64,000 nucleotides of DNA from an uncultured Bacilli bacterium (GTDB taxonomy: Bacteria; Bacillota_I; Bacilli_A; RFN20; CAG-631). The stretch spans positions 40,692 to 104,691 of the forward strand of contig CANQTM010000003.1 in assembly GCA_947626825.1 (NCBI GenBank), read 5' to 3'. Under the pieces are notes generated by a model. The model was not told the origin of the DNA, searched no databases, and worked only from the letters and a program-made list of their open reading frames with translations. Shown here one piece after another: positions 11,238-61,809 of this stretch; position 1 is the stretch's first letter; each line of letters begins with the position of its first letter. The translations under genes were made by a program, and so were the position numbers.

Positions 11238-12026
11238 TTATTTTTCCATTTCTATCATTTTTAATAAATGTTTAACAGCACCATCTTCATCATTAGTAAG
11301 CATAGTTATCTCATCAGCACATATTTTGGCAGCAAATTCAGCATTTTTCATAGCTATACCAATATTGGCATAAAATAATAATTCAGCATCGTTTTCACCA
11401 TCGCCAAAAAAAATCAAATCTTTTGCTGATTTATTATATAGTTTTAAAAGAACATCTACACCTTCCTTTTTAGAAAAATTTAAATTGTAAAACTCACCAA
11501 CTACATTCCAATATCTATAATGATAATCATTGTTACTTGTATTAATCAATTGGGCAATTCTTTCTTGATATTTATGATCTTTAGCCATAATAACCATTGT
11601 ATTAGGAGCTGATGGCAATGTTTTTTTAAAATCGCCAATTATATCAACATTGGGCCATCCTTTGCCAGTCAATGCATATGATTTATAATCAATTTCTACT
11701 AAAACATCTAAAACCATAGACATTATTTCTTGATTTGCTAATAAATCATTTAATATTTGCATAGGTATTGTAATATTACGATATTTAATGTTCTTTATAG
11801 GATCATAAACTAAAGCACCATTACATAATACACATATTTCTTTTATATGACATCTTCGATAAATTTCAATACTTGAAACAATGCTTCGACCTGTTACTAA
11901 AGTTATTTTATAACCATCATTTACTAATTTTGTTATAACATCATATGAATAATCTGATGGAAATGCATTACTTCTTGCTAAAGTGCCATCTATATCAAAG
12001 GCAATTAATTTATCTTTTAAAGCCAT
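11238..12026 (-). CDS. Cof-type HAD-IIB family hydrolase
   Basis: 262 aa with FDIDGTL at the N-terminus and GDGENDAELL near the C-terminus. Its stop overlaps the trpS start by 1 nt. Confidence 0.75.
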   Translation of the reverse strand: MALKDKLIAFDIDGTLARSNAFPSDYSYDVITKLVNDGYKITLVTGRSIVSSIEIYRRCHIKEICVLCNGALVYDPIKNIKYRNITIPMQILNDLLANQEIMSMVLDVLVEIDYKSYALTGKGWPNVDIIGDFKKTLPSAPNTMVIMAKDHKYQERIAQLINTSNNDYHYRYWNVVGEFYNLNFSKKEGVDVLLKLYNKSAKDLIFFGDGENDAELLFYANIGIAMKNAEFAAKICADEITMLTNDEDGAVKHLLKMIEMEK

Positions 12027-13018
12027 TATCTTAATCCTACTTTTCTATAAACTTTATTCAATTTTTTTCGAGCTTCATAAATAGCTTTATATGATCCCTC
12101 TTGAAGAATATTTTCAATTATACCACTTTTTTGTATGTCATTTACTTTTGATTGAAGTAAACTTAATTCATTAACTACAACATCGGCTACTTTCTTTTTA
12201 AAGACACCATAATTATCATTTTGACATTCATTTACAACATTTTCTATTGATTTATTTGTTAAAGCAGACATTATAGTTATTAAATTTGAAATTCCAGGTT
12301 TATTAACTGGATCATATATTATTTCATTACCACTATCTGTTACAGCAGACATTATTTTTTTACGAATAATTGCCAAATCTTCTAATAAATAAATTGTTCC
12401 TTTATCTGATTCTGATTTAGACATTTTCTTTAAAGGATTAGATAATGAATTTATTTTAGAACCAATTTTTGGAGTTAAAGGTTCAGGAATTTTAAATGTA
12501 TCTGAATATCTTGAATTAAAACGTATTGCTAAATCTCTAGTTAATTCAACATGTTGTTTTTGATCAATTCCAACTGGAACATAATCAGCATCATAAAGTA
12601 AAATATCTGCAGCCATTAATGTGGGATAAATAAATATTCCTGTAGGAATAGCCTCATTACTTGCTATTTTACTAACTTTATCCTTATATTGAGTCATTCT
12701 AGATAATTCACCTATATATGAATTAAATGTCATTATAAAGCCAAGTTCAGCATGCATTGGGACATCGCTTTGTCTAAACAATGTGACCTTTTTAGGATCT
12801 AAGCCACACGCTAAATAAACTGCTATTAAATTTTTAACATTATTTCGTAATTCTTTGGCTTCAATTGGCAATGTTAAGGCGTGCAAATCAGCAATAAAAA
12901 CATACATTTCATATTCATCTTGATATTTTATAAATTGTTTAATTGCACCAATATAATTACCTAATGTTAATTGCCCTGTTGGCTTAATGCCACTTACTAA
13001 TCTTTTAATTTCTGACAT
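12026..13018 (-). CDS. trpS: Tryptophan--tRNA ligase
   Basis: 330 aa. The class I HIGH-like region (SGIKPTGQLTLGNYIGA) and the KMSKS motif (KKMSKSE) are present, and the size is typical of TrpRS. Confidence 0.9.
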   Translation of the reverse strand: MSEIKRLVSGIKPTGQLTLGNYIGAIKQFIKYQDEYEMYVFIADLHALTLPIEAKELRNNVKNLIAVYLACGLDPKKVTLFRQSDVPMHAELGFIMTFNSYIGELSRMTQYKDKVSKIASNEAIPTGIFIYPTLMAADILLYDADYVPVGIDQKQHVELTRDLAIRFNSRYSDTFKIPEPLTPKIGSKINSLSNPLKKMSKSESDKGTIYLLEDLAIIRKKIMSAVTDSGNEIIYDPVNKPGISNLITIMSALTNKSIENVVNECQNDNYGVFKKKVADVVVNELSLLQSKVNDIQKSGIIENILQEGSYKAIYEARKKLNKVYRKVGLR

Positions 13019-13029
13019 AATAAAGTCCC

Positions 13030-13265
13030 CCTTTAAAAAAAATAAATCCTTAGAAAAAATCTAAGGACGCAAATTTTACGTGGTACCACCTTAGTTTATA
13101 GTTTCCTATGCACTTTATCTCTATAATGGGAGAACCCAGCGCCACTACTTTGTTCGTTTTGCCCTCAATGACCCATATTATCTACTTTTCTTATTTGCTT
13201 CCACCAAGTGCAAATTCTCTATAAAAGAAATTAGTAGTTTTTCTTCATCTCATCGGTTTATTACA
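13030..13265 (-). promoter_or_regulatory. T-box riboswitch leader upstream of trpS
   Basis: The minus-strand leader contains the conserved T-box sequence ACTAAGGTGGTACCACG (plus-strand 13079..13092 reads cgtggtaccacctt). It is followed by a terminator hairpin (tccttag...ctaagga) and a U-run immediately upstream of the trpS RBS. TGG triplets that could be specifier codons are present in the stem I region. Confidence 0.75.
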
Positions 13266-22065: not shown

Positions 22066-23091
22066 TTATTCGTCGTTTAAGTAGGCGTCTCCCCACATCA
22101 TAATAAAACTAAATATGTCGCTATCTCCTAATGTACCACCAAATGGTTGAAAAGGATAAGCCATCATATTGTATGTTGCATCGGCTTCTGTTCTTTCAAC
22201 TAATCCTAACACGTAGCCAAATGCAGCAATAGTAAGGCCTAAAACATTTGCACGATATGAAGCTGGATTCCCATCACTATCGAAATATATATCACTCATA
22301 GCCTGATATAAATCAAGATTATTAGAAATATTACACCCCGTAACGATAACATTTTCAGAAATCTTATAATATTTGTAACTTACCCGAACATCTGGCACAT
22401 CAACAAATTCTACACGGAAATTTGATCTTAAATCATCAAAGACAAAATCAACATTACCGCATGATTCCCATAATGCAACAGCTTCTTCAATAAGATCTTT
22501 ATATACAAATGTTTCGCCTGTTATTTTGTCATAAACTTCTTGAAATGCACTTTCTGAGTAAGAATAATAAATTTTTGCTGGCCCTTGATGTGGAATAGAA
22601 TATCCATGCATTCTTTTAAAATCATAAACATACATTCCACTAGGATTTGGCGTTAATTCAATTGATCCTTCCCATCTGCAATTAGCTTGGCATCTAATTC
22701 GAAAATATACTGTATCTCCTTGATGTAAGAAAAAGACATTCATTTCTGTTGCACCTTCTCCTTGGTGATAAGTATAAATTGGTTTATCAAGACCTTGTGA
22801 TTCTATAAAGACATCTGCTGTTCCTTTTAAATTATCTGATACAAAGAAAACGAAGAAAAAACATCGCGAATATTTCGCAGTAAATTTACAGTAATCATAT
22901 GTATCTCTTATACCATAAACTTGCATTATTTGCCAATTTTTGAAAGTCATTTCTTCTGCATCTTCAAAAGATGTAGTTTCAGTAAAATCTTCATAGGCAT
23001 TACCTAAAGTTTTAATTGGTGCAGATCCAATTGAACTCGTACTCAACCCTAGTGTTAACACAGAGGCCAATAGGGCATTGCTTAATGTCAT
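22066..23091 (-). CDS. Secreted hypothetical protein (signal peptide)
   Basis: The start is taken at the minus-strand ATG 23091, preceded by GGGAGG. The N-terminus MTLSNALLASVLTLGLSTSSIGSAP is signal-peptide-like. The first 12 codons of the track ORF read through the RBS. Confidence 0.5.
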   Translation of the reverse strand: MTLSNALLASVLTLGLSTSSIGSAPIKTLGNAYEDFTETTSFEDAEEMTFKNWQIMQVYGIRDTYDYCKFTAKYSRCFFFVFFVSDNLKGTADVFIESQGLDKPIYTYHQGEGATEMNVFFLHQGDTVYFRIRCQANCRWEGSIELTPNPSGMYVYDFKRMHGYSIPHQGPAKIYYSYSESAFQEVYDKITGETFVYKDLIEEAVALWESCGNVDFVFDDLRSNFRVEFVDVPDVRVSYKYYKISENVIVTGCNISNNLDLYQAMSDIYFDSDGNPASYRANVLGLTIAAFGYVLGLVERTEADATYNMMAYPFQPFGGTLGDSDIFSFIMMWGDAYLNDE

Positions 23092-23157
23092 AAATAATTC
23101 CTCCCAATTTTTAATTATTTGAAACATTAATTATTAGGAGCACAACATTAGATTATT

Positions 23158-23889
23158 TTATACAGTTAATATGCTTAAAGTGCCAATATCGCCTTCGATA
23201 TCTAATTCGATATTATAAACACCTCTTTGAGAAATAAATGGTATTCTATTATTCCATATAATTAGATCAGAATTATATAAATTTTTATTTTGTGTCAAAG
23301 TAAAATTTCTATAACGAGTACCATTATTGTAAATTGAAATATACATTATGCATATTTCTTTTATATAAAAATCGTATTTCTTAAAATATTTATCAGATAA
23401 ATCTAATTTTTTAATACTATATTTTTGAGAATTTAAATTTTTATTATTTTCAATAAAATCGAAGCAATTATATTGACCTTCAATATCTTTAATAGTCATT
23501 GTAGCAGTAATTTGGTTTAAATCATTTTTATTTGTATTTATATCTGAATCAAATTTCTTATCAACAAATAAAACGGACATTCCTACTATTGAAATCACTA
23601 AAATAAGCATACTAAAAATTGACAACATAATAGAAAATCTTTTATGTCTTTTAGTTGCCTTATTTTGCTTCAAGATATATGAATCAACATCAAAATCCTC
23701 ACCAACTAAATCATCAATACTTACGTTGAACAATTTAGCAATAATGGCTATGTTTTCCCAACTTGGATTTCTTCGACCCATTTCCCAATTAGCAACTGTA
23801 CCTCTAGTTACATTACAAGCAATTGCAATATCATCTTGTTTCATATGCAATTCGATTCGAATCTTTTTTATCTTTTCAGATAAGTTCAT
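23158..23889 (-). CDS. Membrane-anchored XRE-family HTH transcriptional regulator
   Basis: 243 aa with an N-terminal HTH (LHMKQDDIAIACNVTRGTVANWEMGRRNPSWENIAIIAKLFNVS), one transmembrane segment (IMLSIFSMLILVISIVGMSVLFV) and a C-terminal extracytoplasmic domain. Confidence 0.6.
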   Translation of the reverse strand: MNLSEKIKKIRIELHMKQDDIAIACNVTRGTVANWEMGRRNPSWENIAIIAKLFNVSIDDLVGEDFDVDSYILKQNKATKRHKRFSIMLSIFSMLILVISIVGMSVLFVDKKFDSDINTNKNDLNQITATMTIKDIEGQYNCFDFIENNKNLNSQKYSIKKLDLSDKYFKKYDFYIKEICIMYISIYNNGTRYRNFTLTQNKNLYNSDLIIWNNRIPFISQRGVYNIELDIEGDIGTLSILTV

Positions 23890-24144: not shown

Positions 24145-25179
24145 ATGAAAATTTTAGCTATAGTTGATAAATTTAAAAACACTTTAACTTCAAAACAAAT
24201 AGGAATAATTTGCAAAAAAGTCTTTGAAAGAAAAGGATTTAATGTAGATTATGTACCAATATCTGATGGCGGCGATGGCTTTTTAGATTGTATAAATTAT
24301 AAAAATAATTTACAAAAAATTTATTGTTATGCTCATAGTGCAAATGGAAAAAGAATCAAAACATATTATTATCAACTTAATGACGATATTTATATTGAAA
24401 CAGCAAAAATTATTGGTTATCGTAAAGATAGTACTTTTGACATTAAAAATGCATCATCTTATGGATTAGGTGAAGTTATAAAAAAAGCCATTAAAAATCA
24501 TGGAAAAAACATATATATTGGCTTAGGCGGAACATTAACAAACGATGCAGGAATTGGCATGTTTGAAGCTTTAGGTTTTGTTTTTGAAAAGGACAAAATA
24601 ATTTGGCCTAAACTATTATTAGAAAATAATGTTTCATTTCATATTATTAGTGATGTTACAAATCCTCTTATTGGCCCTAATGGTGCAACATATATGTTTG
24701 CAAAACAAAAAGGAGCAACAAAAAACGATTTACCAATTCTTGAAAATAAAATTAAAAATTTTTCTCTATATATAAATAAAATTCTAAATAATTGTTATAA
24801 TAATCTTCCTGCTGCTGGTGCTGCAGGAGGATTAGGATTTGCTTTTTTAAGTGTATTAAAAGCACAATATCATCATGGAATTAATTTTATGTTAGACTAT
24901 TTAAACATTCAAAACATTTTACCATCATATGATATTGTTATTACCGGTGAAGGACAAATAGATACTCAATCTTTATATGGAAAAACTGTTTTTGAAATAT
25001 TAAAATATTGTCAAAAGAAAACAATTATAATATGTGCTATAAATAAAATTAAAACTAAAATATGCAATAACAACATTATTGGATTATATAGTATTGTCCC
25101 TTCTATTGCAACTAAAGAACAATCATTAAAAAATCCTAAATTTTATTTAGAAAAACTTTTAAAAAATATAAAAATTTAA
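24145..25179 (+). CDS. glxK: Glycerate kinase
   Basis: 344 aa with the ISDGGDGF and GGTLTNDAGIG motifs of the glycerate kinase family. Confidence 0.75.
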   Translation: MKILAIVDKFKNTLTSKQIGIICKKVFERKGFNVDYVPISDGGDGFLDCINYKNNLQKIYCYAHSANGKRIKTYYYQLNDDIYIETAKIIGYRKDSTFDIKNASSYGLGEVIKKAIKNHGKNIYIGLGGTLTNDAGIGMFEALGFVFEKDKIIWPKLLLENNVSFHIISDVTNPLIGPNGATYMFAKQKGATKNDLPILENKIKNFSLYINKILNNCYNNLPAAGAAGGLGFAFLSVLKAQYHHGINFMLDYLNIQNILPSYDIVITGEGQIDTQSLYGKTVFEILKYCQKKTIIICAINKIKTKICNNNIIGLYSIVPSIATKEQSLKNPKFYLEKLLKNIKI

Positions 25180-25772
25180 TTCTTTTTGTATTTTTTATAA
25201 TATTTATAAAAAGTTGATCTTTTTAATCCAGTTTTATTTAAAGCATCCGTAATATTAATTTCATTTTTTGAATATTGTTCAAATATCATTAAAAATTTAT
25301 TTGTTAATTTTATTTTAGGGCGACCAAAAGCTACGCCCTTTTCTTTTGCTATCTTAATGCCTTCTGCTTGTCTTTGTTTTATATTTGCCCTTTCATTTTC
25401 GGCAACAAAAGATAAAATTTGTAAAACAATATCTGAAATAAATTTTCCTACTAAATTTTTATTTTCACTTCTAGTATCTAAAAGATTCATATCTAACACA
25501 ACAATATCACAGTTAACTGTTTTAGTAATATGAGCCCATTCTTCAATTATCATATCATAATTTCTTCCCAATCTATCAATTGACTTAATTACTAACAAAT
25601 CACCTTTTTGAAGTTTACTTCTTAAAATTTTATAATTTGTTCTATCAAAATCTTTCCCACTTTGCTTATCAACATAAATCCTATTTTCATTTACTCCAAA
25701 CTTTTTTAATTCTATTATTTGCCTATCAAGTTTTTGATCTTTTGAAGATACTCTTGCGTATCCATAAATCAT
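25176..25772 (-). CDS. Small serine recombinase (resolvase/invertase family) with C-terminal HTH
   Basis: Begins MIYGYARVSSKDQ with the catalytic Ser, followed by RQ...DRLGR motifs and a C-terminal HTH. The start is at ATG 25772 with RBS AGAGGTGA. The stop codon overlaps the glycerate kinase stop on the opposite strand. Confidence 0.8.
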   Translation of the reverse strand: MIYGYARVSSKDQKLDRQIIELKKFGVNENRIYVDKQSGKDFDRTNYKILRSKLQKGDLLVIKSIDRLGRNYDMIIEEWAHITKTVNCDIVVLDMNLLDTRSENKNLVGKFISDIVLQILSFVAENERANIKQRQAEGIKIAKEKGVAFGRPKIKLTNKFLMIFEQYSKNEINITDALNKTGLKRSTFYKYYKKYKKN

Positions 25773-25820
25773 AATAATCACCTCTGCTTAACTTATGTAG
25801 CAAATAAAATATAATATTTT

Positions 25821-25984
25821 TTGTTTATAAAAGTAAACATTTAGAGAATTAAAAAAAGAAACTTTTTAGGAAAAAATATGAGACTATTATGAAACTATAT
25901 TGAGATTTTCAAAAAAATAAGGTAGAATGTGACCAAAAAGTAAACAATTTGGGTTTGTTTATAAAAGTTTACTTTTATAGACAA
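25821..25984. repeat. Recombinase-adjacent element bounded by 18-bp inverted repeats with internal TGTTTA/TAAACA subsite repeats (candidate invertible switch or res-like site)
   Basis: ttgtttataaaagtaaac (25821-25838) and gtttacttttatagacaa (25967-25984) are reverse complements, matching 17 of 18. There is a direct copy of ttgtttataaaagt at 25955-25968 and an extra TAAACA at 25941-25946. The element lies 49 nt from the recombinase start. Confidence 0.55.
25900..25928 (+). promoter_or_regulatory. Consensus-like sigma-70 promoter inside the IR-bounded element, facing the 26002 gene
   Basis: TTGAGA (25900-25905), a 17-nt spacer, then TAGAAT (25923-25928). It is followed by RBS AGAGGGA and the ATG at 26002. 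Confidence 0.5.
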
Positions 25985-26001
25985 GAGGGAAAAATTAAAA
26001 T

Positions 26002-26253
26002 ATGGAAAAAAAATATGACAATTTAAAACTACTTAAAAAAATACAATTTTGGAAAAATATTACTTACATTATTAGTGCACTTTTTATAATGAGTACTATT
26101 TCATCACTATTAATTGTAATTTTGTCTGGCATTGATAAGATTGTTTTACTATTAGTTCTTTTAACTATATCTTTAGTAATGTGTTTAATAAATATAATAA
26201 TTAATTTGTACATTGATTCATTAATTAAGAATAAAGATAAGACTAATAACTAA
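26002..26253 (+). CDS. Small hypothetical membrane protein (two predicted TM helices)
   Basis: 83 aa, two hydrophobic stretches, good RBS. It lies downstream of the candidate switch promoter. Confidence 0.45.
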   Translation: MEKKYDNLKLLKKIQFWKNITYIISALFIMSTISSLLIVILSGIDKIVLLLVLLTISLVMCLINIIINLYIDSLIKNKDKTNN

Positions 26254-26430
26254 AAAATCCCACACATAAATAATAACATAAAGTCAAGCATTTTTTTCAT
26301 CTCTACATGAAAATAAATTTATATGACAAAGTCATATGTTTTTTCAAGTCTTTAAATAGTCTCTAAATAGTTTTTAATTAGTTGCATTTTTGTGTTTAAT
26401 TAGTCTCAAAAAATAAAAAAGGTGATAAAA

Positions 26431-27174
26431 TCACTCACCTATAATCTTAGTAATATAGCCAATTGGTAGCACTGTTATATTATCATTTACTGTTACAGGA
26501 TAACTTGGATGATAATGTCCAGCATACCAATGTTTAAAATTATTAGCATTATATATTTTTTGTAAAAAATCTTGAAGAGGACAAATCTGATCTTTAAATC
26601 TACCAGGTATAAAAGCAATTAATTTGTTAAAAATAGATAATGGAACATCATGTGTAATAACATAATCAACATGATGTGTGCAATAATATTGATAAGCGCT
26701 TTGGAAATCTTCTGTTTTAATTTCTTGTGGCCACCAAAACTTTTTATTATATTCAGCTTCCAATTTTAATCTTTTATCTTTATCAATAGATAAGCCACCA
26801 TTAAATGTAAAAAATTTTATACCATCTATATCAAAGATCTGACCATTTTTGGCATAGTAAACATCAACATCTGGTTCTTTATAGCATTTACCATTAAAAA
26901 TAATTTCTTCAGGAAAAGATTCAATGATATCATAATTTTCATGATTACCTAAAACAGCAATAATAATAAATGGTAAATTATTAAGATGTTTCATTCTTTG
27001 ACCTTTGCTAGTTTCGTTTTCATATGAATTAACAAATCCTGCATCACCAGCAACAAATAAAATATCTTTTTTTTCTAAAGATGTTTTTGATTTTGACTTT
27101 AATTCTTCAAATTTAATATCAAGAAGATCTAAGTCACCATGAATATCACCAATTACATATATATTGCGCTCCAT
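26431..27174 (-). CDS. Metallophosphoesterase (calcineurin-like phosphoesterase)
   Basis: NIYVIGDIHGD and GNHE motifs are present. The start is taken at the ATG for MERNIYV (27174), preceded by GGGGGAAAA. The track ORF begins 7 codons earlier. Confidence 0.7.
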   Translation of the reverse strand: MERNIYVIGDIHGDLDLLDIKFEELKSKSKTSLEKKDILFVAGDAGFVNSYENETSKGQRMKHLNNLPFIIIAVLGNHENYDIIESFPEEIIFNGKCYKEPDVDVYYAKNGQIFDIDGIKFFTFNGGLSIDKDKRLKLEAEYNKKFWWPQEIKTEDFQSAYQYYCTHHVDYVITHDVPLSIFNKLIAFIPGRFKDQICPLQDFLQKIYNANNFKHWYAGHYHPSYPVTVNDNITVLPIGYITKIIGE

Positions 27175-27379
27175 AGGATTTTCCCCCAAGACCATTTCAT
27201 ATTACAATACAATTTTCTTATATGCAACAAATAAAAAAATATAATTTAAGTTTTTTTATGTTTTATTGATAAGATTAAATTGAAATTTTTAATATTATTT
27301 TATTTGAATTAACAAAATTTATTTCAAATATTAAAAATTAAAATTTATTGTATAAATTTTACAAATTTTTTTAAAAAAA

Positions 27380-27452
27380 TTAGCACTCAAGTGTTGACAT
27401 TGCTAAAATGTGATGTATAATATAATTAGCAGTCAGGAAATATGAGTGCTAA
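27380..27452 (+). promoter_or_regulatory. Doubled, degenerate CIRCE (HrcA operator) elements overlapping the hsp20 promoter
   Basis: TTAGCACTC-N9-CATTGCTAA (27380-27406) and TTAGCAGTC-N9-GAGTGCTAA (27426-27452). The consensus is TTAGCACTC-N9-GAGTGCTAA. TTGACA (27394-27399) and TATAAT (27416-27421) sit in between. Confidence 0.6.
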
Positions 27453-27481
27453 AAAATATAATAATGAAAGGAAATATTATT

Positions 27482-27901
27482 ATGAACAACTATAACAAAA
27501 GAAACCAAATTGATTTATTTGATGATGATGATCCATTTTTCACACCATTCGTTAATTTTTTCTCAAAGGAAAGTAGCAAACTTTTAAAAACCGATATTAA
27601 AGAGACTGATAAAGAATACACTCTTTTAATGGATGTTCCAGGTTTGACAAAAAAAGACATTAAAATTTCTTTAGATCAAAAATATCTAACAGTTACTGCA
27701 ACAAGTGATCAAGAATCACAAGAAGGAACAAAATATATTCGTAAAGAAAGATTCTATGGTACAAGTACACGTTCTTTCTATGTAGGAGATATTGAACAAA
27801 AAGATATTAAAGCATCTTTTGAAAATGGTCTTTTAATTATTGTAATTCCTAAGAAGAATTATCAAAAAGCAGAAGAGAAAAAATATATCGATATCAATTA
27901 A
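27482..27901 (+). CDS. Hsp20/alpha-crystallin family small heat shock protein
   Basis: The alpha-crystallin domain (DIKETDKEYTLLMDVPGLTKKDIKISL...GLLIIVIPK) is present. The start is taken at ATG 27482 after AAAGGA. The track ORF starts at an upstream GTG. Confidence 0.85.
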   Translation: MNNYNKRNQIDLFDDDDPFFTPFVNFFSKESSKLLKTDIKETDKEYTLLMDVPGLTKKDIKISLDQKYLTVTATSDQESQEGTKYIRKERFYGTSTRSFYVGDIEQKDIKASFENGLLIIVIPKKNYQKAEEKKYIDIN

Positions 27902-27974
27902 TTCGATATAAATTAATTGCATAAAAGGTTGGCTTCATATATAATTTTGCCAACCTTTTTTATAAATTTGTTTA

Positions 27975-28469
27975 TTATTGTACTTTTAATCTTTCTTTTA
28001 ATTTTGTTTCAATTTCATCTTTAACAACAGATGGAACATAATTTGATATATCACTATTAAATAAAACAAGTTCTTTTATAGAAGATGATGATAAAAATAA
28101 ATTGTTAGCTGAAGGAAACAACAAAATTATTTCAATTGATTTATCTATTGTATGGTTAAATTGAAACAATTGCATTTCAGCATCAAAATCATTATGATTT
28201 CTTAATCCCCTAATAATGGCAGTAGCATGAACTTTTTGAGCATATTTCATTACTAAGTCATCAGAAAATACTACATTAACATTTTTTAAATGAGCACAAG
28301 ATTTTTTTACAATGTTAATTCTTTCTTCAATTGAAAAAATACATTTTTTATTGGGATTTACAGAAACCAAAACATAAAGTGTATCACATAATTTACTAGC
28401 TCTAGTTATAATATCAAGATGACCATTTGATAAAGGATCAAATGTTCCAGGATAGATAGCAACTTTCAT
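27975..28469 (-). CDS. coaD: Phosphopantetheine adenylyltransferase
   Basis: 164 aa. VAIYPGTFDPLSNGHLDII is the classic CoaD nucleotidyltransferase motif. Confidence 0.9.
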   Translation of the reverse strand: MKVAIYPGTFDPLSNGHLDIITRASKLCDTLYVLVSVNPNKKCIFSIEERINIVKKSCAHLKNVNVVFSDDLVMKYAQKVHATAIIRGLRNHNDFDAEMQLFQFNHTIDKSIEIILLFPSANNLFLSSSSIKELVLFNSDISNYVPSVVKDEIETKLKERLKVQ

Positions 28470-35548: not shown

Positions 35549-35625
35549 GGCCTATTGGTGAAGCGGCTTAACACATCGCCCTCTCAAGGCGACATTCACG
35601 AATTCGAATTTCGTATAGGTCACCA
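35549..35625 (+). tRNA. tRNA with anticodon CTC (reads GAG; tRNA-Glu-like), encoded CCA
   Basis: 77 nt. The acceptor stem is GGCCTAT/ATAGGTC with discriminator A and CCA. The T arm is ACGAA-TTCGAAT-TTCGT, D-loop AAGCGGCTTAA. The anticodon stem is TCGCC/GGCGA with loop CTCTCAA, which resembles tRNA-Glu. Confidence 0.7.
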
Positions 35626-56400: not shown

Positions 56401-59400
56401 ATGGGAAATATTGATAACAAATTCGAAATTTGGACAAAAAAACTTTATGATATATCTAAAAAAAATTATATGATTAATTTTAGAGGGCAAAAAAATCGAT
56501 GTTTAACAATAACTAAGCCTGATATTTTTGAATTATATGATTCTTTAGTATTTAAAGATAATTCTATGTCTTTTAAAAGAGCAATTACTGCTGATACAAA
56601 TTTCAATATTTTTGCTATTAATACTTTAATTAATTGTTTAGGTAATAGTACCATTTTTGAAGAAGGAGATATTTCTGTTGCACCGAAAGTCAACAAAACC
56701 CCATATTTTATTTTAAGAAACATTAAGAAAACTGCTAATTTTTTTAAACAAGAACAAGGCATTGATGTCATGTATATGACTTTTTTATATGTAAGATGGC
56801 ATCCAATTGGCTCAACAGATGAATATTTAACACCTTTAGTTAATGTTCCTGTTTCTTTAGAACAAGATAATATCTATTCATTATTTATATTAAAAAAACA
56901 AGGTGAACCTGAAATAAACCCAATATTTTTATATATGTTAGAGCAACAACAAATGACAATACCTTCTATAAATGACAAACCATTAAAAGAATATTTGGTA
57001 GAATTAGAAAAAATATTTGCAGATTTGGATTTTGAAATAATTCAACAGGCTAATCTATGTGTACTATTTTTCCAAAAAATGGTAATGTTTAAAGATTTAG
57101 TAAATAATAAAGAAAGAATTATAAATCATCCAATCATTAAAATGTTTTGTAATGATAATGAAGAAAATACGATTTTTGATTTAGATAATTTTCCACAAAT
57201 AAAAGAAAGCCAAAAAATTGTTGTAATTGATGCAGATTCAAGTCAAAGCAAGGCTTTAGATTTAGCAACTCAAGGGCAATCATTTGTATTGCAAGGCCCA
57301 CCTGGAACTGGCAAAAGTCAAACAATTACTAATATAATAGCAAGTCAAATATATCAAGGCAAAAAAATTCTATTTGTCTCGCAAAAGACTGCCGCTTTAG
57401 AAGTTGTTTTTAATATGCTTAAGAAAATTGGACTTAGTGATTTAGCCTTAACTTTACATAACAATAACAAATTAAATAAAAATGAAATTATAAATGAAAT
57501 TTATGCTCCTTTTTCATTTAAAAAGTTTAATGTTAAAGAAGAAAAAATAAATTATTTAATGAAAATCGATCAAATTTTAAATGATTTAGAACAATATAAT
57601 GAACTTTTAAATACCAAAGTTTATTCATTAAATGATACATTATATGAATTAATTAATAAATATTTTGATCTTATAGAAATATCAAAAAGTAATTTTAAAA
57701 TTAATTTTGATTTAACTTCATTAGATTATAAAACACTTCTAGAAAATGTAAATTCAATTAATCTTTTTGAAAACGAATGGAAATCAATTACAATAAATAA
57801 TGATGATTGTTATGATTATTTTGCTATTGACGATATATCATTACAAACCAAAGAAAAATTAGATAACGATTTATTATTAATTTACAATAAAATTGAACCA
57901 TTAGTAAACACATACTTGAATTTAAAAAAATATATTAGTAATTTATCTTTAACTTTTGATAATTCTTTAAATATTTTAGACGATTTAAATAAATTAAATA
58001 ATATTGATTTTAATGATATTAAAATAAACAATATTGAACTTTTAAATGAATATATCGATGATATTAATTTTTATTTAAAAAGTGATGAAGACTTAAAAAA
58101 GACATACCAAGAAATAAATAATATTTTTTATGATAATATTTTTAATATTGATATGAAAGAATTAGCAAATATTATTGAAAATAATCTTAATATTATTAAA
58201 ACTAATATTAAAGATTTTGCTAATTGTTCACATTACGAAATAATGCAACAATTAAATAATTATGCTAATAGTCTTAATAATTTTATCAATAATAAGGAAA
58301 CATTTGATAAAACAACTAATTATTTAACAACTTTATTACATGTTTCTTTGGATACTTTATTATCTTATGACTTATACCATATAAATGAAGAATTAAAAAA
58401 TAACACATATTCTTTAAGTTATTTTTCTGTAGCTTATAGTAATTATGATGTTGTTATAAATAATTTAAATAGATATAAAGAATTAAAAGAAAACCAAAAA
58501 CATTTAAAAAAATTAATTACTAATTTATCATATGAAGCTATTTTAACTTTAAATGAAAATCAAGTAGATAATTATTTAATTATTTTAGATGAAAAAACTA
58601 ATTGGTTTAATTTTAGTAAAAAAGAAGCTAAAAAAGATGTTATTAATAAAATATCAACTTATTTATACGATAATCAAACAAATATAGAAACTGTTATAAA
58701 CATTTTACATCTTGTTAAAAATTATCAAGAAATTACTAATCACTTAAAGCAATTAGGTCAAGCAATAAAGCCATTATTAAATGACACGATTAATCTTGAT
58801 AATAGTGAAATTGACTGCCAAAGTTATATCAATGAATTAGACAAATTGCATCATATTATTATATTATTACCAAATGTTAAAGAAAATATTTTAAAAAGTA
58901 TTTTAAGTTTTGATAATGCTTTAAATTTTAAAAATAATCTTTACAATCTTTTAGAATGTTTACCAATGGTTATAAATAATTATGATAATGATTTACAAAC
59001 TTTAATAGAAAACGAAAAAATTGTAAATGAAACATTAAAATTTGTTAACACATTAAAATTATATTGTAAAGATTTTACACTATTAAAAGATATTGAAAAC
59101 AAATATATTTATTTAAAAAATTATGCTAAAATCAAACAAGAAAATCAAGAAAAGAAAACTATTTTAGATAATATTTTTACATATGATATTTTAAAATCAA
59201 AAAAGCAATTATTTTATATAAATCAAATTAATTGTTTTGCCAAAACATATAATTTAAATCAAAACGAATTATTATTAAATTTAATAAATCACTCAAAAGA
59301 TATTTTCTTTCTTATTTTGCAATTTAAAGAAAGATATAGCCAATCTTTACCATCATATAATCATTTTAAAGAAATGTTTACCAAAGAAAAAAATCTTGAA

Positions 59401-61809
59401 AATTATGATTTAAAAGAATTGTTAGATTTAATTTATCGTTGTCAATTGAATATTAACACATTAAAAGATAAGAAAAGATTTAATAAAAATTTAATAAATT
59501 ATCGTTCAAATCCTTATTTAACCAATTTTATTGATTATTGTCTTGAAAATAATTTAAAAGAAGATTTAGCTAATATTTATTTAAAAAAGATTTATCATAA
59601 TTTAATTGAAAATTTTATTTATGATAATGATATTTTAGAAAATTTAAATAAAACAAAATTAGATAATGATATAAAAGAATTAGAAAAATTAAGTTATTAT
59701 CAAATGGAAATTTCAAGACAACAAGTGAAAAGTGCTTGGATAGATAATGTTCCATCGATTAAAACAATAATGGCTAGTAATGATGAAAGAAACTTTTTAC
59801 AAAATGAAAAAAGAAAAGTTAGAAAAAAATCATTAAGAGTAATTTTAGATCACATACCTCATATTTTAATGGCATTAAAACCATGTTTGATGATGTCACC
59901 ATTAACTGTTTCTAATTATCTTGAAAATGATAATTATGATTTTGATTTAGTTATTTTTGATGAAGCTTCACAAATAAAACCAGAAGAAGCAATCGGATCA
60001 ATTTATCGAGGAAAACAAGTTATAATTGCTGGTGATAGCAAACAATTACCACCAACAAGTTTCTTTGAAAAACAAATAGAAAATGATGAAGATTATGATG
60101 ATGAAGACATCGATGAAACTATTGATGAATCAATTTTAGATTTAGCATCTAGAAAATTACCATCAATCACTTTATTATGGCATTATCGTAGTAAAATTGA
60201 AAGTTTAATTGCTTTTTCTAATAATAATTTTTATGACAATGAATTAATAACTATTCCATCTGCTAAACAAAATCAAATTGATTATGGCATTGAATATATT
60301 AAAGTTGATGGCATTTATGAAAAAAATAGCCGTTATGCTAATGTTATCGAAGCCAAAAAGGTTGTAGAATTAATTTATCAACATATTTTAAACCATAATG
60401 ATAAATCATTAGGAATCATTGCTTTTGGCGAAAGACAAAGAAATACTATTGAAAAAGTATTATTTGATTATCGAAAAAATTTAAAAAATCAAGATGAAAA
60501 GCTTTTTAAAGAAAGTGAAGAATTCTTTAATAATAATGATAAAGAACCATTTTTTATTAAAAATATTGAAAATGTTCAAGGCGATGAAAGAGATGTCATT
60601 ATATTTTCAATAGGTTATGGTCCTGATGAAGAAAATAACTTTAAATATAATTTTGGACCTTTGTCGAAACAAGGCGGACAAAGAAGATTAAATGTCGCTA
60701 TTTCAAGAGCAAAATATAATCTTAAAATAGTTTGTTCTTTTTTACCAACTGATTTAGAATTATCACGAATTGAATCTGAAGGTGGACGTTTATTTAAAGA
60801 ATATCTTGAATATGCCCAAATGGTTTCACTTGGTATTCATAAATTTAATGATGATATTTTATCAGTTGATGGTGTAAAAGCAAGCATTGCATCATTTTTA
60901 CATGAAAATGGTTATAAATATTTATTAAACTATGGCTATTCGTCTTTTAAAATCGATATTGCTATATTTAATCCTAATGATGATAAGCAATTAATTTGTG
61001 GAATTATAATTGATAATCAAGATGCTAATATTACCATTAAAGATAAAGAAGTTATTCTAAAAAAAGTTTTATATTATAATGAATGGAAAATTTACAATGT
61101 AAATTGCAAACTTTATTTTGAAAATCCTTCATTTATTAATGAAAACATTTTAGAATTCTTAAACAATAATATAGTTGAAGAAAAAATTGATTTAATAACC
61201 ACTGATGAAAATGATTTAATTACTATTAAAGAAGATGAAAGTGATGATACTAGTTATAATTTTATATTATATCAAGAATTTGATTTTAATGAATATTTAG
61301 CTATTAATGGTTTAACAGATGTCAAACTTTGGGTCATTGATGAAAAAATAATGACTGCATTTTTAAACAAAGAAGGTCCAACTTTATTTAAAATATTAGT
61401 TGATAAATTTGCTAAAGCATTTAATGCAACAGCAAAAGAAATAACAGGTAGTATTCAAAAAGTTATCACAAAAGAACCATTTATATGGAATCGACAAAAT
61501 AACTTTGTTTATAATAGTCATGAAAATCCTTGTATTGTTCGTCAATGCATTGATAACAAAAGTAGAAGTTTTGAAAGTATTTATCCATTAGAAATTAGTA
61601 ATTGCTTAACCACAATTATTCGTCAAAATATTGGTTTATCTGCTGATGGCATTATTGAAGAAGCTATGCGTATTTATAATCAAAAAAATAAATCTGCATC
61701 TTTAATAATAAATTATAAAACACATTTAGAACGTTTAAAAGAAGATAAAAAAATTCAAGAAATAAATGGCGTCTATACAATTTATCAAGGAGGGAAAAAT
61801 CATGAATGA
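56401..61809 (+). CDS. Giant SF1 (Upf1/DNA2-like) helicase with DUF4011-like N-terminal domain and C-terminal Vsr/DUF559-like PD-(D/E)xK nuclease plus DUF3320-like tail
   Basis: 1802 aa. Walker A VLQGPPGTGKSQTITNII is at about aa 297. About 800 aa of K/N/L/I-rich low-complexity helical insertion follows. Motif II is VIFDEASQ, motif III IIAGDSKQLPPT, motif VI GGQRRLNVAISRAKYNL. After that, FKIDIAIFNPND...GIIIDNQD looks like an endonuclease core. Domain names are from recall of this architecture and are not searched. Confidence 0.75.
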   Translation: MGNIDNKFEIWTKKLYDISKKNYMINFRGQKNRCLTITKPDIFELYDSLVFKDNSMSFKRAITADTNFNIFAINTLINCLGNSTIFEEGDISVAPKVNKTPYFILRNIKKTANFFKQEQGIDVMYMTFLYVRWHPIGSTDEYLTPLVNVPVSLEQDNIYSLFILKKQGEPEINPIFLYMLEQQQMTIPSINDKPLKEYLVELEKIFADLDFEIIQQANLCVLFFQKMVMFKDLVNNKERIINHPIIKMFCNDNEENTIFDLDNFPQIKESQKIVVIDADSSQSKALDLATQGQSFVLQGPPGTGKSQTITNIIASQIYQGKKILFVSQKTAALEVVFNMLKKIGLSDLALTLHNNNKLNKNEIINEIYAPFSFKKFNVKEEKINYLMKIDQILNDLEQYNELLNTKVYSLNDTLYELINKYFDLIEISKSNFKINFDLTSLDYKTLLENVNSINLFENEWKSITINNDDCYDYFAIDDISLQTKEKLDNDLLLIYNKIEPLVNTYLNLKKYISNLSLTFDNSLNILDDLNKLNNIDFNDIKINNIELLNEYIDDINFYLKSDEDLKKTYQEINNIFYDNIFNIDMKELANIIENNLNIIKTNIKDFANCSHYEIMQQLNNYANSLNNFINNKETFDKTTNYLTTLLHVSLDTLLSYDLYHINEELKNNTYSLSYFSVAYSNYDVVINNLNRYKELKENQKHLKKLITNLSYEAILTLNENQVDNYLIILDEKTNWFNFSKKEAKKDVINKISTYLYDNQTNIETVINILHLVKNYQEITNHLKQLGQAIKPLLNDTINLDNSEIDCQSYINELDKLHHIIILLPNVKENILKSILSFDNALNFKNNLYNLLECLPMVINNYDNDLQTLIENEKIVNETLKFVNTLKLYCKDFTLLKDIENKYIYLKNYAKIKQENQEKKTILDNIFTYDILKSKKQLFYINQINCFAKTYNLNQNELLLNLINHSKDIFFLILQFKERYSQSLPSYNHFKEMFTKEKNLENYDLKELLDLIYRCQLNINTLKDKKRFNKNLINYRSNPYLTNFIDYCLENNLKEDLANIYLKKIYHNLIENFIYDNDILENLNKTKLDNDIKELEKLSYYQMEISRQQVKSAWIDNVPSIKTIMASNDERNFLQNEKRKVRKKSLRVILDHIPHILMALKPCLMMSPLTVSNYLENDNYDFDLVIFDEASQIKPEEAIGSIYRGKQVIIAGDSKQLPPTSFFEKQIENDEDYDDEDIDETIDESILDLASRKLPSITLLWHYRSKIESLIAFSNNNFYDNELITIPSAKQNQIDYGIEYIKVDGIYEKNSRYANVIEAKKVVELIYQHILNHNDKSLGIIAFGERQRNTIEKVLFDYRKNLKNQDEKLFKESEEFFNNNDKEPFFIKNIENVQGDERDVIIFSIGYGPDEENNFKYNFGPLSKQGGQRRLNVAISRAKYNLKIVCSFLPTDLELSRIESEGGRLFKEYLEYAQMVSLGIHKFNDDILSVDGVKASIASFLHENGYKYLLNYGYSSFKIDIAIFNPNDDKQLICGIIIDNQDANITIKDKEVILKKVLYYNEWKIYNVNCKLYFENPSFINENILEFLNNNIVEEKIDLITTDENDLITIKEDESDDTSYNFILYQEFDFNEYLAINGLTDVKLWVIDEKIMTAFLNKEGPTLFKILVDKFAKAFNATAKEITGSIQKVITKEPFIWNRQNNFVYNSHENPCIVRQCIDNKSRSFESIYPLEISNCLTTIIRQNIGLSADGIIEEAMRIYNQKNKSASLIINYKTHLERLKEDKKIQEINGVYTIYQGGKNHE

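Follow-up and report, generated by a model that had tools for sequence, protein, structure and literature searches.

The locus at 25176 to 26253 of the window, the 64-kb stretch of DNA analysed here, was read as a site-specific inversion switch (inverton), a reading to which we assign a probability of about 0.8. A 132-bp segment carrying a promoter lies between two inverted crossover sites, with the gene of a small serine recombinase on one side and that of a small predicted membrane protein on the other. Invertible-promoter phase variation is a well-known kind of bacterial regulation, found here in an uncultured gut bacterium. A reading of the DNA made beforehand from the letters alone (the sequence-only reading) had proposed a phase-variable promoter switch with an adjacent recombinase, and this proposal is supported, as the segment is in the opposite orientation in the nearest relatives (loci L015 and L127/L128) and both states occur in three related species. 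As both orientations exist in close relatives, the segment should turn the small membrane-protein gene on and off. Comparison of sequences demonstrates the two sites, the conserved promoter and, in orthologous loci, the inversion together with its point of exchange. The features of the locus are as follows.

25176..25772, minus strand: gene of a small serine recombinase of 198 aa, with the catalytic Ser9 in YARVSS and a predicted DNA-binding region at the C terminus
25808..25837, minus strand: candidate recombinase promoter (TTTACT, lying in the crossover-site core, 18-nt spacer, TATATT; consensus scan 9/12)
25821..25850, no strand: recombinase-proximal crossover site, TTGTTTATAAAAGT-AA-ACATTTAGAGAATT, central dinucleotide 25835-25836
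25837..25968, no strand: invertible segment, 132 bp between the central dinucleotides, from comparison with inverted relatives
25900..25928, plus strand: candidate invertible promoter, TTGAGA-17-TAGAAT (consensus scan 10/12), facing the small membrane-protein gene in the window
25955..25984, no strand: distal crossover site, in inverted orientation to the proximal one, TTGTTTATAAAAGT-TT-ACTTTTATAGACAA, with 25969-25970 as the central dinucleotide
26002..26253, plus strand: putative regulated gene, encoding an orphan 83-aa predicted two-helix membrane hairpin (from its position and layout in syntenic relatives and AlphaFold2)
26320..26344, plus strand: weak terminator-like hairpin of low confidence (8-bp stem followed by a T run), past the small gene

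Each crossover site is a dyad-symmetric 30-bp sequence composed of a 14-bp half-site, a 2-bp centre and a second 14-bp half-site. The element at 25821-25984 had been described as bounded by 18-bp inverted repeats; the inverted repeat is real, but its ends are these 30-bp dyad sites, and the exchanged segment, previously placed at 25839-25966, is corrected to 25837-25968. Because both ends are dyad-symmetric, they are also direct repeats of TTGTTTATAAAAGT. The arms of the inverted repeat (25821-25843 and 25962-25984) are 23 nt long and 91% complementary. Across the 229-bp intergenic region, the top score of any 23-nt inverted repeat was 21 matches, a value reached in 0/300 first-order Markov simulations (mean 16.2, sd 1.0, max 19), and the repeat is thus beyond chance. 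The site core AAARGT-NN-ACWTTT was found in the 64 kb only at these two sites, against 0.4 expected, and the 64-kb window held no further copy of the inverted repeat or the site core, so that the notion of a shufflon or multi-locus control found no sign there. An extra inverted pair noticed inside the element does exist at 25941-25961, but it is kept in the closest relative only and is absent from the other aligned lineages.

In the closest relatives, whose recombinases are 73-83% identical to that of the window and which share its gene neighbourhood, the segment is inverted relative to the recombinase gene. The interior of the segment in the window matched that of L015 at 99/138 positions as the reverse complement and at 80/142 in the forward direction, with shuffled sequences giving 73.5±3.3. 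Between the window and L015/L127 the half-sites are swapped at the proximal site, as a central crossover predicts, and the same junction swap between states was seen in the orthologous loci L095/L096 and L115/L116. Contigs with identical recombinase and identical flanks were found in both orientations in three related species (P0050 group, L095 versus L096-L104; P0025 group, L116/L118 versus L115/L117; P0073 group, L146/L147 versus L148). The exchange point was confined to 6-10 bp around the central dinucleotide, and in the P0025 group to the 6-bp GTAAAC core; exchange at this dinucleotide would be expected for a serine recombinase. In ten sequences from the eight lineages measured, the segment always spanned 132-133 bp.

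Such differences in orientation might also be rare, old inversions that arose by general recombination between the inverted repeats and became fixed in individual strains, and it is true that each orientation came from a different sample, with no single sample shown to hold both. We regard this as very improbable, since the same event turns up repeatedly, in three species as well as between three lineages, the exchange falls at the dyad centre, and the architecture of the sites fits serine recombinases. The repeats are identical over only 6-13 bp at the exchange point and are therefore too short for homologous recombination. In addition, six truncated contigs start exactly at GTTTAC (L008 and L010 from the species of the window, and L108, L114, L120 and L122). 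As GTTTAC marks the first base common to both states, contig starts there are expected for a branch in the assembly graph, and the repeated breakage of contigs at the crossover base indicates mixed populations within samples. In the species of the window itself, the 9/9 spanning sequences (eight contigs and the window) were in one orientation, ON. Look-ups of the flipped state by the exact recombinase and both small-protein variants returned the window orientation or broken-off contigs only, and no match came from JGI metagenomes scanned with a 24-mer specific to the species; a scan with a lineage-level 21-mer recovered two relatives, in both of which the promoter faces the recombinase gene, along with five chance matches. 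Because spanning contigs of this species show only the window orientation, switching there rests on the two contig ends and on homology, from which we infer that the segment flips in this species too, with TTGTTTATAAAAGTAAACTTTTATAAACAAACCC and AATTCTCTAAATGTTTACTTTTATAGACAAGAGG as the predicted flipped-state junctions. The uniform orientation could instead mean that the species carries the remnant of a switch, locked ON, whose sites serve only as operators for a recombinase-derived autorepressor, and the conserved candidate recombinase promoter overlapped by the proximal site would suit that as well. This is unlikely, though less so than fixed inversions, as the recombinase retains its catalytic Ser and Arg motifs, the GT-AA-AC core is retained in both sites, two contigs of the species end exactly at the crossover base, and the orthologous loci flip in sister species.

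An inversion switch at this locus would act through the promoter within the segment. A candidate sigma-70 promoter aimed at the small gene, as had been noted from the sequence alone, is present with conserved -35 and -10 elements, but the TTGAGA-17-TAGAAT match by itself is not significant, since promoter-like matches are not enriched in the 25% GC DNA of the window (11 found, 12 expected). When seven lineages were aligned, neither the -35 TTG..A nor the -10 TA.AAT varied, and the half-sites and the promoter were the only conserved elements within the segment. No enhancer or accessory factor was evident. In flipped relatives, this promoter faces the recombinase gene. The recombinase gene probably has a weak promoter of its own, with its -35 within the proximal crossover site; TATATT, 17-18 nt past TTTACT, is invariant across the seven aligned lineages, and the sequence beyond TATATT diverges. 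Both candidate promoters are presumably active. Because the -35 of the candidate recombinase promoter lies inside the proximal site, a recombinase bound there would repress its own gene, and site occupancy may thus bring about autorepression. In some relatives (P0012 and P0025 groups), a hairpin terminator (GGCTGGC..GCTAGCC followed by a T run) separates the proximal site from the start of the recombinase gene; the window has no terminator hairpin in this interval. The idea that presence or absence of this terminator sets the predominant state was dropped, because L015, L127 and L133 are without it, yet their promoter faces the recombinase gene.

The recombinase is encoded by an open reading frame of 198 aa starting at an ATG preceded by a GAGGTG ribosome-binding site (the mechanical open reading frame from an upstream GTG is 201 aa), and the identical protein is encoded by 11 metagenome contigs. 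Its earlier description as a 198-aa recombinase with the catalytic Ser in YARVSS was borne out: it matched Pfam Resolvase (PF00239) at 99.5 bits (cutoff 23.3) and aligned over residues 2-191 with Sin/Bin3 (109 bits) and gamma-delta/Tn3 resolvase (91 bits). YARVSS with Ser9 and IDRLGRN align with S10 and D67/R68/R71 of gamma-delta resolvase and with Sin, and by alignment the catalytic Ser and Arg motifs are intact. The alignments to gamma-delta and Tn3 resolvases reach residues 191-192 and cover the DNA-binding domain of those resolvases; HTH_7 (PF02796) is present in close homologues and was not reported by the Pfam scan of the window protein. The protein also matched PHROG 125, annotated as DNA invertase (1.5e-49), and the NCBIfam Mpi model NF009949 at 55.3 bits, under the equivalog cutoff of 272. 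Gin scored 49 bits, against 109 for Sin. In sequence, Sin and plasmid resolvases are nearer relatives of the recombinase than Hin/Gin, with Gin much further away.

The best relatives in sequence and among solved structures, namely Sin/Bin3, gamma-delta/Tn3 and the Firmicutes plasmid 'res' recombinases, are what one would expect if the array were a three-subsite res site of a resolvase left by a degraded transposon or plasmid, resolving cointegrates or dimers at direct repeats; a three-subsite res site from a degraded mobile element had been offered as an alternative. Like res in front of tnpR, the hexamer array directly precedes the gene. However, conservation is limited to two sites and does not include the third pair; the reverse-complementary centres of the two place them in inverted orientation, and the rearrangement seen is an inversion, not a deletion. 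The locus lies in syntenic chromosomal DNA between housekeeping genes in several species, no transposase, plasmid or other mobile-element gene was found near it, and the 64 kb holds no further site copies. We therefore reject the res alternative, the least credible of those considered. The GC-skew minimum near the locus was also considered as a replication origin, an idea set aside because neither dnaA nor another origin gene was found nearby.

The gene that the inversion switch would control starts at 26002 and, as had been anticipated, encodes a small protein with two predicted transmembrane segments. An AlphaFold2 model (pLDDT 79) predicts a plain helical hairpin of helices 2-42 and 46-82, and an open reading frame of 83-90 aa with two hydrophobic helices occupies the same position in every syntenic relative, at identities of 18-28% (44% between the two closest lineages). 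The protein had no match in Pfam, NCBIfam, PHROGs or PADLOC. A word-indexed search returned one near-identical cluster, and an exhaustive HMMER search of 1.8 billion representatives gave 3 matches, of which 1 is probably an orthologue and 1 is of low complexity. Past the gene, the minimum-energy fold of 26254-26350 (-9.2 kcal/mol in total, with a z of only -1.48) includes the hairpin at 26320-26344, which a terminator scan did not detect.

The following mechanism is proposed. Recombinase dimers would bind the two inverted 30-bp dyad sites, centred on AA at 25835-36 and TT at 25969-70, and the sites would synapse, although with centres 134 bp apart the distance is short for synapsis. Ser9 would then cut both strands at the central dinucleotides with a 2-bp stagger, and rotation of the subunits would let the DNA be rejoined with the intervening 132 bp inverted. 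In the state of the window, the sigma-70-type promoter would read through the distal site into the gene of the 83-aa protein (ON); in the other state, it would read toward the recombinase gene and the small gene would lose its promoter (OFF). Recombinase bound at the proximal site would repress its own weak promoter. The adjacent recombinase is the putative catalyst, a role supported by exchange at the dyad centre and by the way the sites accompany this recombinase clade in front of unrelated cargo.

Paired AAARGT-NN-ACYTTT motifs with reverse-complementary centres were found upstream of the recombinase gene in six genome relatives among the closest (~63-73% identity), and a single match to this core in four more. 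Among ~67 more distant loci, it occurred once only, as a single match far upstream. As the cargo genes differ among the motif-bearing relatives, the sites and the recombinase travel together, and in more distant relatives the same cassette lies upstream of restriction-modification genes. A tentative wider reading, about which we are more doubtful than hopeful, is that a portable, self-contained cassette derived from Firmicutes plasmid resolvases has been placed repeatedly before costly genes by gut Bacillota, that the small protein is a phase-variable defence or envelope effector, that the toggle is self-biasing, and that the segment is held at 132-133 bp because a serine invertase working independently of an enhancer is constrained by looping or phasing. 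If so, the costly cargo would comprise DNA methyltransferases with a SNF2/ResIII-type helicase gene, large surface proteins and the orphan two-helix protein, and the bias would come from the alternative target of the promoter (the recombinase gene) together with the asymmetric half-sites. In other gut Bacillota, the position of the cassette before restriction-modification genes suggests that methylation or defence is phase-variable in them. The conserved, fast-evolving 83-90 aa membrane protein is one whose expression the bacterium apparently hedges. The locus offers a cleanly delimited, comparatively validated switch in uncultured, very AT-rich gut Bacilli, a group for which reports describe invertons as scarce, and it defines a crossover site (14-2-14 bp) for a clade of resolvase-like recombinases behaving as promoter invertases. 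A site this short and an enzyme this small could serve as a compact genetic toggle.

Like Hin/hix, Gin/gix, Cin and Pin, the locus combines a small serine recombinase with two inverted dyad sites whose 2-bp centre is asymmetric (AA/TT, as in hix), and, as in Hin/Gin-type switches, a promoter in the segment is predicted to give ON/OFF control of a flanking gene. Unlike in Salmonella Hin and phage Gin, the recombinase gene lies outside the segment, which is 132 bp compared with ~1 kb (Hin) and ~3 kb (Gin); also unlike Hin/Gin, no enhancer is evident in the segment, and the protein falls outside the Hin/Gin subfamily by sequence (Gin 49 bits). Bacillota are not known to have Fis. As with Sin, Tn552 Bin, beta-type and Firmicutes plasmid resolvases, the recombination site directly precedes the recombinase gene, whose candidate promoter it overlaps. 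The res sites resolved by those enzymes are direct repeats with accessory subsites on plasmids or transposons, in contrast to the two simple inverted chromosomal sites here, with inversion as the product. Dependence on an HU-like bending protein is plausible for the recombinase, as for its Sin-type relatives. A full-text literature search did not find this recombinase clade with AAAGGT-NN-ACCTTT sites described, which is not proof of absence. Bacteroides fragilis Mpi is likewise a gut-bacterial serine recombinase, flipping short promoter segments (<~200 bp) by which flanking genes are controlled. As a master invertase of many dispersed loci (PMC5903667), Mpi differs from the single local switch abutting the recombinase gene here, which has no other site in 64 kb and whose recombinase scores below the cutoff of the Mpi model. 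In the PhaseFinderDC study of a defined gut community, the median number of invertons per genome was 0 for Bacillus-like Firmicutes (PMC11892184), and the invertase links highlighted in the accessible parts of the gut surveys were of the tyrosine type. The layout of the locus agrees with that of gut invertons catalogued by PhaseFinder, PhaseFinderDC and DeepInverton: intergenic inverted repeats around a promoter, with an invertase gene nearby (PMC11892184, PMC11602134).

Sequence comparison supports the interpretation of this locus as a promoter inversion switch, in which a 132-bp promoter-bearing segment (25837-25968) lies between two inverted crossover sites beside a small serine recombinase gene. 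The 229 bp between this gene and an 83-aa ORF hold the inverted repeat, sites and promoter listed here with the flanking features.

25176-25772, - strand: small serine recombinase gene, 198 aa, ATG start preceded by GAGGTG
25821-25843 and 25962-25984: inverted repeat arms, 23 nt, 91% complementary
25821-25850: proximal site (recombinase side), 30 bp, dyad-symmetric, TTGTTTATAAAAGT-AA-ACATTTAGAGAATT
25900-25928: promoter-like TTGAGA-17-TAGAAT, facing the 83-aa ORF in the window
25955-25984: distal site (83-aa ORF side), 30 bp, dyad-symmetric, TTGTTTATAAAAGT-TT-ACTTTTATAGACAA
26002-26253, + strand: 83-aa ORF, faced by the invertible promoter
26320-26344: weak hairpin followed by a T run, after the small gene

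The top 23-nt inverted repeat of the region has 21 matches, compared with 16.2 ± 1.0 (maximum 19) in 300 Markov simulations, which bears out the repeat that the sequence-only reading had placed at the ends of the element. A direct repeat is also present between the ends because each end is a dyad-symmetric site, and as the central dinucleotides AA and TT are reverse complements, the sites are inversely oriented. The site core AAARGT-NN-ACWTTT matched only these two sites in 64 kb (0.4 matches expected); further repeat copies, which the same reading had proposed seeking in the rest of the genome, are absent elsewhere in the window. In the alignment across lineages, three of the four half-sites are close to TTGTTTATAAAAGT, while the fourth (AATTCTCTAAATGT in the window), although conserved, has no outer TTGTTT. 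The site pairs thus differ between the two states, an inequality that could, speculatively, bias switching.

The promoter-like TTGAGA-17-TAGAAT is not significant by itself (11 sites found, 12 expected in DNA of 25% GC). When all lineages were set to one orientation, however, its -35 (TTG..A) and -10 (TA.AAT) were invariant, as were the two site cores, the whole proximal palindrome and a TATATT hexamer that follows the site-core TTTACT by 17-18 nt. All eight lineages measured (ten sequences) had a segment interior of 132-133 bp. TTTACT and TATATT may form the promoter of the recombinase gene, and by analogy with res/tnpR, enzyme bound at the proximal site would occlude this candidate promoter. 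The lineages of two groups of loci defined by recombinase protein, P0012 and P0025 (L105-L124), carry a GC-rich hairpin and T run (GGCTGGC..GCTAGCC-ATTTTT) in the stretch that separates the proximal site from the recombinase ribosome-binding site. This structure is absent from the window's species and, in the recombinase-facing state, would stop transcription coming from the invertible promoter.

Inversion was indicated by comparison with relatives. In the nearest genome relative (L015, recombinase 73% identical) and the nearest metagenome relative (L127/L128, 83%), the element is collinear with the + strand of the window and the recombinase gene lies on the opposite side, so the interior is reversed with respect to the flanks. 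The interiors of the window and L015 matched at 99/138 positions as reverse complement versus 80/142 forward (shuffles, 73.5 ± 3.3). Outer half-sites remained with the flanks and only inner half-sites were exchanged, as expected for exchange at the site centre. Moreover, both states were found within species, with identical recombinase and identical flanks, on contigs from different samples, in three groups.

P0050 group: L095 versus L096-L104
P0025 group: L116/L118 versus L115/L117
P0073 group (more distant): L146/L147 versus L148

The exchange point was mapped to within the 6-bp GTAAAC core in the P0025 pair and within 10 bp in the P0050 pair, and coincides with the dyad centre of the site, the position at which serine recombinases make cuts staggered by 2 bp. 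Numerous contigs break in the switch region, and six (L008 and L010, both of the window's species, and L108, L114, L120 and L122) start exactly at GTTTAC, the first base common to both states; these starts are suggestive of an assembly-graph branch from a mixed population, though not proof of it. The low-coverage contigs L005, L006 and L126 end instead at an A7 run inside the proximal site (25847-25857), not at the crossover base, which may reflect homopolymer length variation or chance. In the window's own species, the promoter faces the small gene in 9/9 sequences (the window and eight spanning contigs), whereas the opposite state predominates in most relatives. Flipping probably continues in this species, judging from the preserved sites and catalytic motif, from the two contig ends in that species and from homology.

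Six of the closest genome relatives (~63-73% identity) have AAAGGT-NN-ACCTTT-type sites in pairs whose centres are complementary (AA/TT or AC/GT); the proximal centre precedes the recombinase start by 57-117 bp. Four further genome relatives have a single core match, and the ~67 more distant loci together gave one lone match, far upstream. In these comparisons, sites and recombinase travel together and the cargo, the gene facing the distal site, varies among site-bearing relatives. All syntenic relatives have at this position an 83-90 aa ORF that shares one layout (two hydrophobic helices between a basic N-terminus and a basic C-terminus), although these ORFs are only 18-28% identical to each other (44% between the two closest lineages). 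The 83-aa protein matched no family in any library searched, gave three hits in an exhaustive search of 1.8 billion representatives, and was modelled by AlphaFold2 as a helical hairpin (pLDDT 79). With 60-64% identical recombinases, the cargo is an Eco57I-type, N6/N4 or Dam-class methylase or a SNF2/ResIII helicase; at L016, L019, L022, L023, L026 and L028, a switch of the same type lies 200-400 bp upstream of the recombinase start, before restriction-modification/helicase genes. From this placement, methylation or defence may be phase-variable in Christensenellales, Acholeplasmatales and other gut Bacillota. The P0100 group (L136-L145) carries a 1148-aa surface protein (Flg_new/DUF6273) behind a shorter switch (~95 bp centre to centre, TTGTCA-17-TATAAT, ~95-180 bp upstream of the recombinase start). 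In L141, one strain of this group, an identical leader and ribosome-binding site precede another gene, so cargo was swapped directly outside the distal site.

The surroundings are chromosomal housekeeping genes (glycerate kinase, metallophosphatase, HSP20, CoaD-like (CTP_transf_like) nucleotidyltransferase, EPSP synthase, a class I (Glu/Gln-type) tRNA synthetase, a T-box leader and a tRNA), with no transposase, plasmid or phage genes near the switch. Most related lineages with 73-83% identical recombinases preserve this arrangement: CoaD-like gene, HSP20, metallophosphatase, small ORF, switch, recombinase, glycerate kinase or TetR, and HTH protein; the P0050 group has other genes beyond the small ORF. 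A 243-aa protein bearing an HTH_3 domain at its N-terminus and, after it, a 353-aa protein without family match (22066-23889, - strand) have counterparts adjoining the switch in all syntenic relatives (HTH_3 protein and 335-353 aa protein). Cumulative GC skew reaches its minimum at ~26000-28000, where genes change from mostly - on the left to mostly + on the right, an origin-like signature; neither dnaA nor other origin genes were among the scanned neighbours. The T-box leader (13060-13262, - strand, 98.5 bits, upstream of ORF 12026-13018) and the tRNA gene (35549-35622, + strand, after the synthetase gene) are ordinary features, and an 1802-aa ORF (56401-61809, + strand) lies where the window is richest in AT (18% GC around 58-60 kb).

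The recombinase, a 201-aa ORF if read mechanically from a GTG upstream of the chosen ATG, matched Pfam Resolvase at 99.5 bits. Alignment to Sin/Bin3 (109 bits) and the gamma-delta and Tn3 resolvases (91 bits; residues 2-191/192) showed that the nucleophilic serine (Ser9 in YARVSS) and the DRLGR motif are retained, confirming the catalytic residue first assigned by eye. Gin scored just 49 bits and the NCBIfam Mpi model 55 bits, below its cutoff of 272; PHROG 125, 'DNA invertase', matched at 1.5e-49. The closest plasmid homologues (~50-53% identical) are annotated as res or recombinase family proteins, and by sequence the enzyme belongs with Sin and the plasmid resolvases. This affiliation is in keeping with the other option of the sequence-only reading, a three-subsite res site of a degraded mobile element, yet the locus lacks the defining features of res systems and its housekeeping surroundings contain no mobile-element genes, so that option was rejected in favour of the phase-variable promoter switch, which both orientations with identical flanks and exchange at the dyad centre support.

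A full-text literature search found no description of this recombinase clade or its site motif. Inverton surveys establish this kind of switch (PMC11892184, PMC11602134, PMC5903667); in one of them, on a defined gut community, the per-genome inverton count of Bacillus-like Firmicutes had a median of 0 (PMC11892184). The kind of switch is thus already known, and some clade-level features merit follow-up. The window recombinase fails the sequence tests for Hin/Gin and Mpi, and their architecture is missing, as the segment contains no gene or enhancer and the enzyme is not a master invertase; the switch nevertheless has the same mode of working as Hin/hix and the Mpi promoter invertons.
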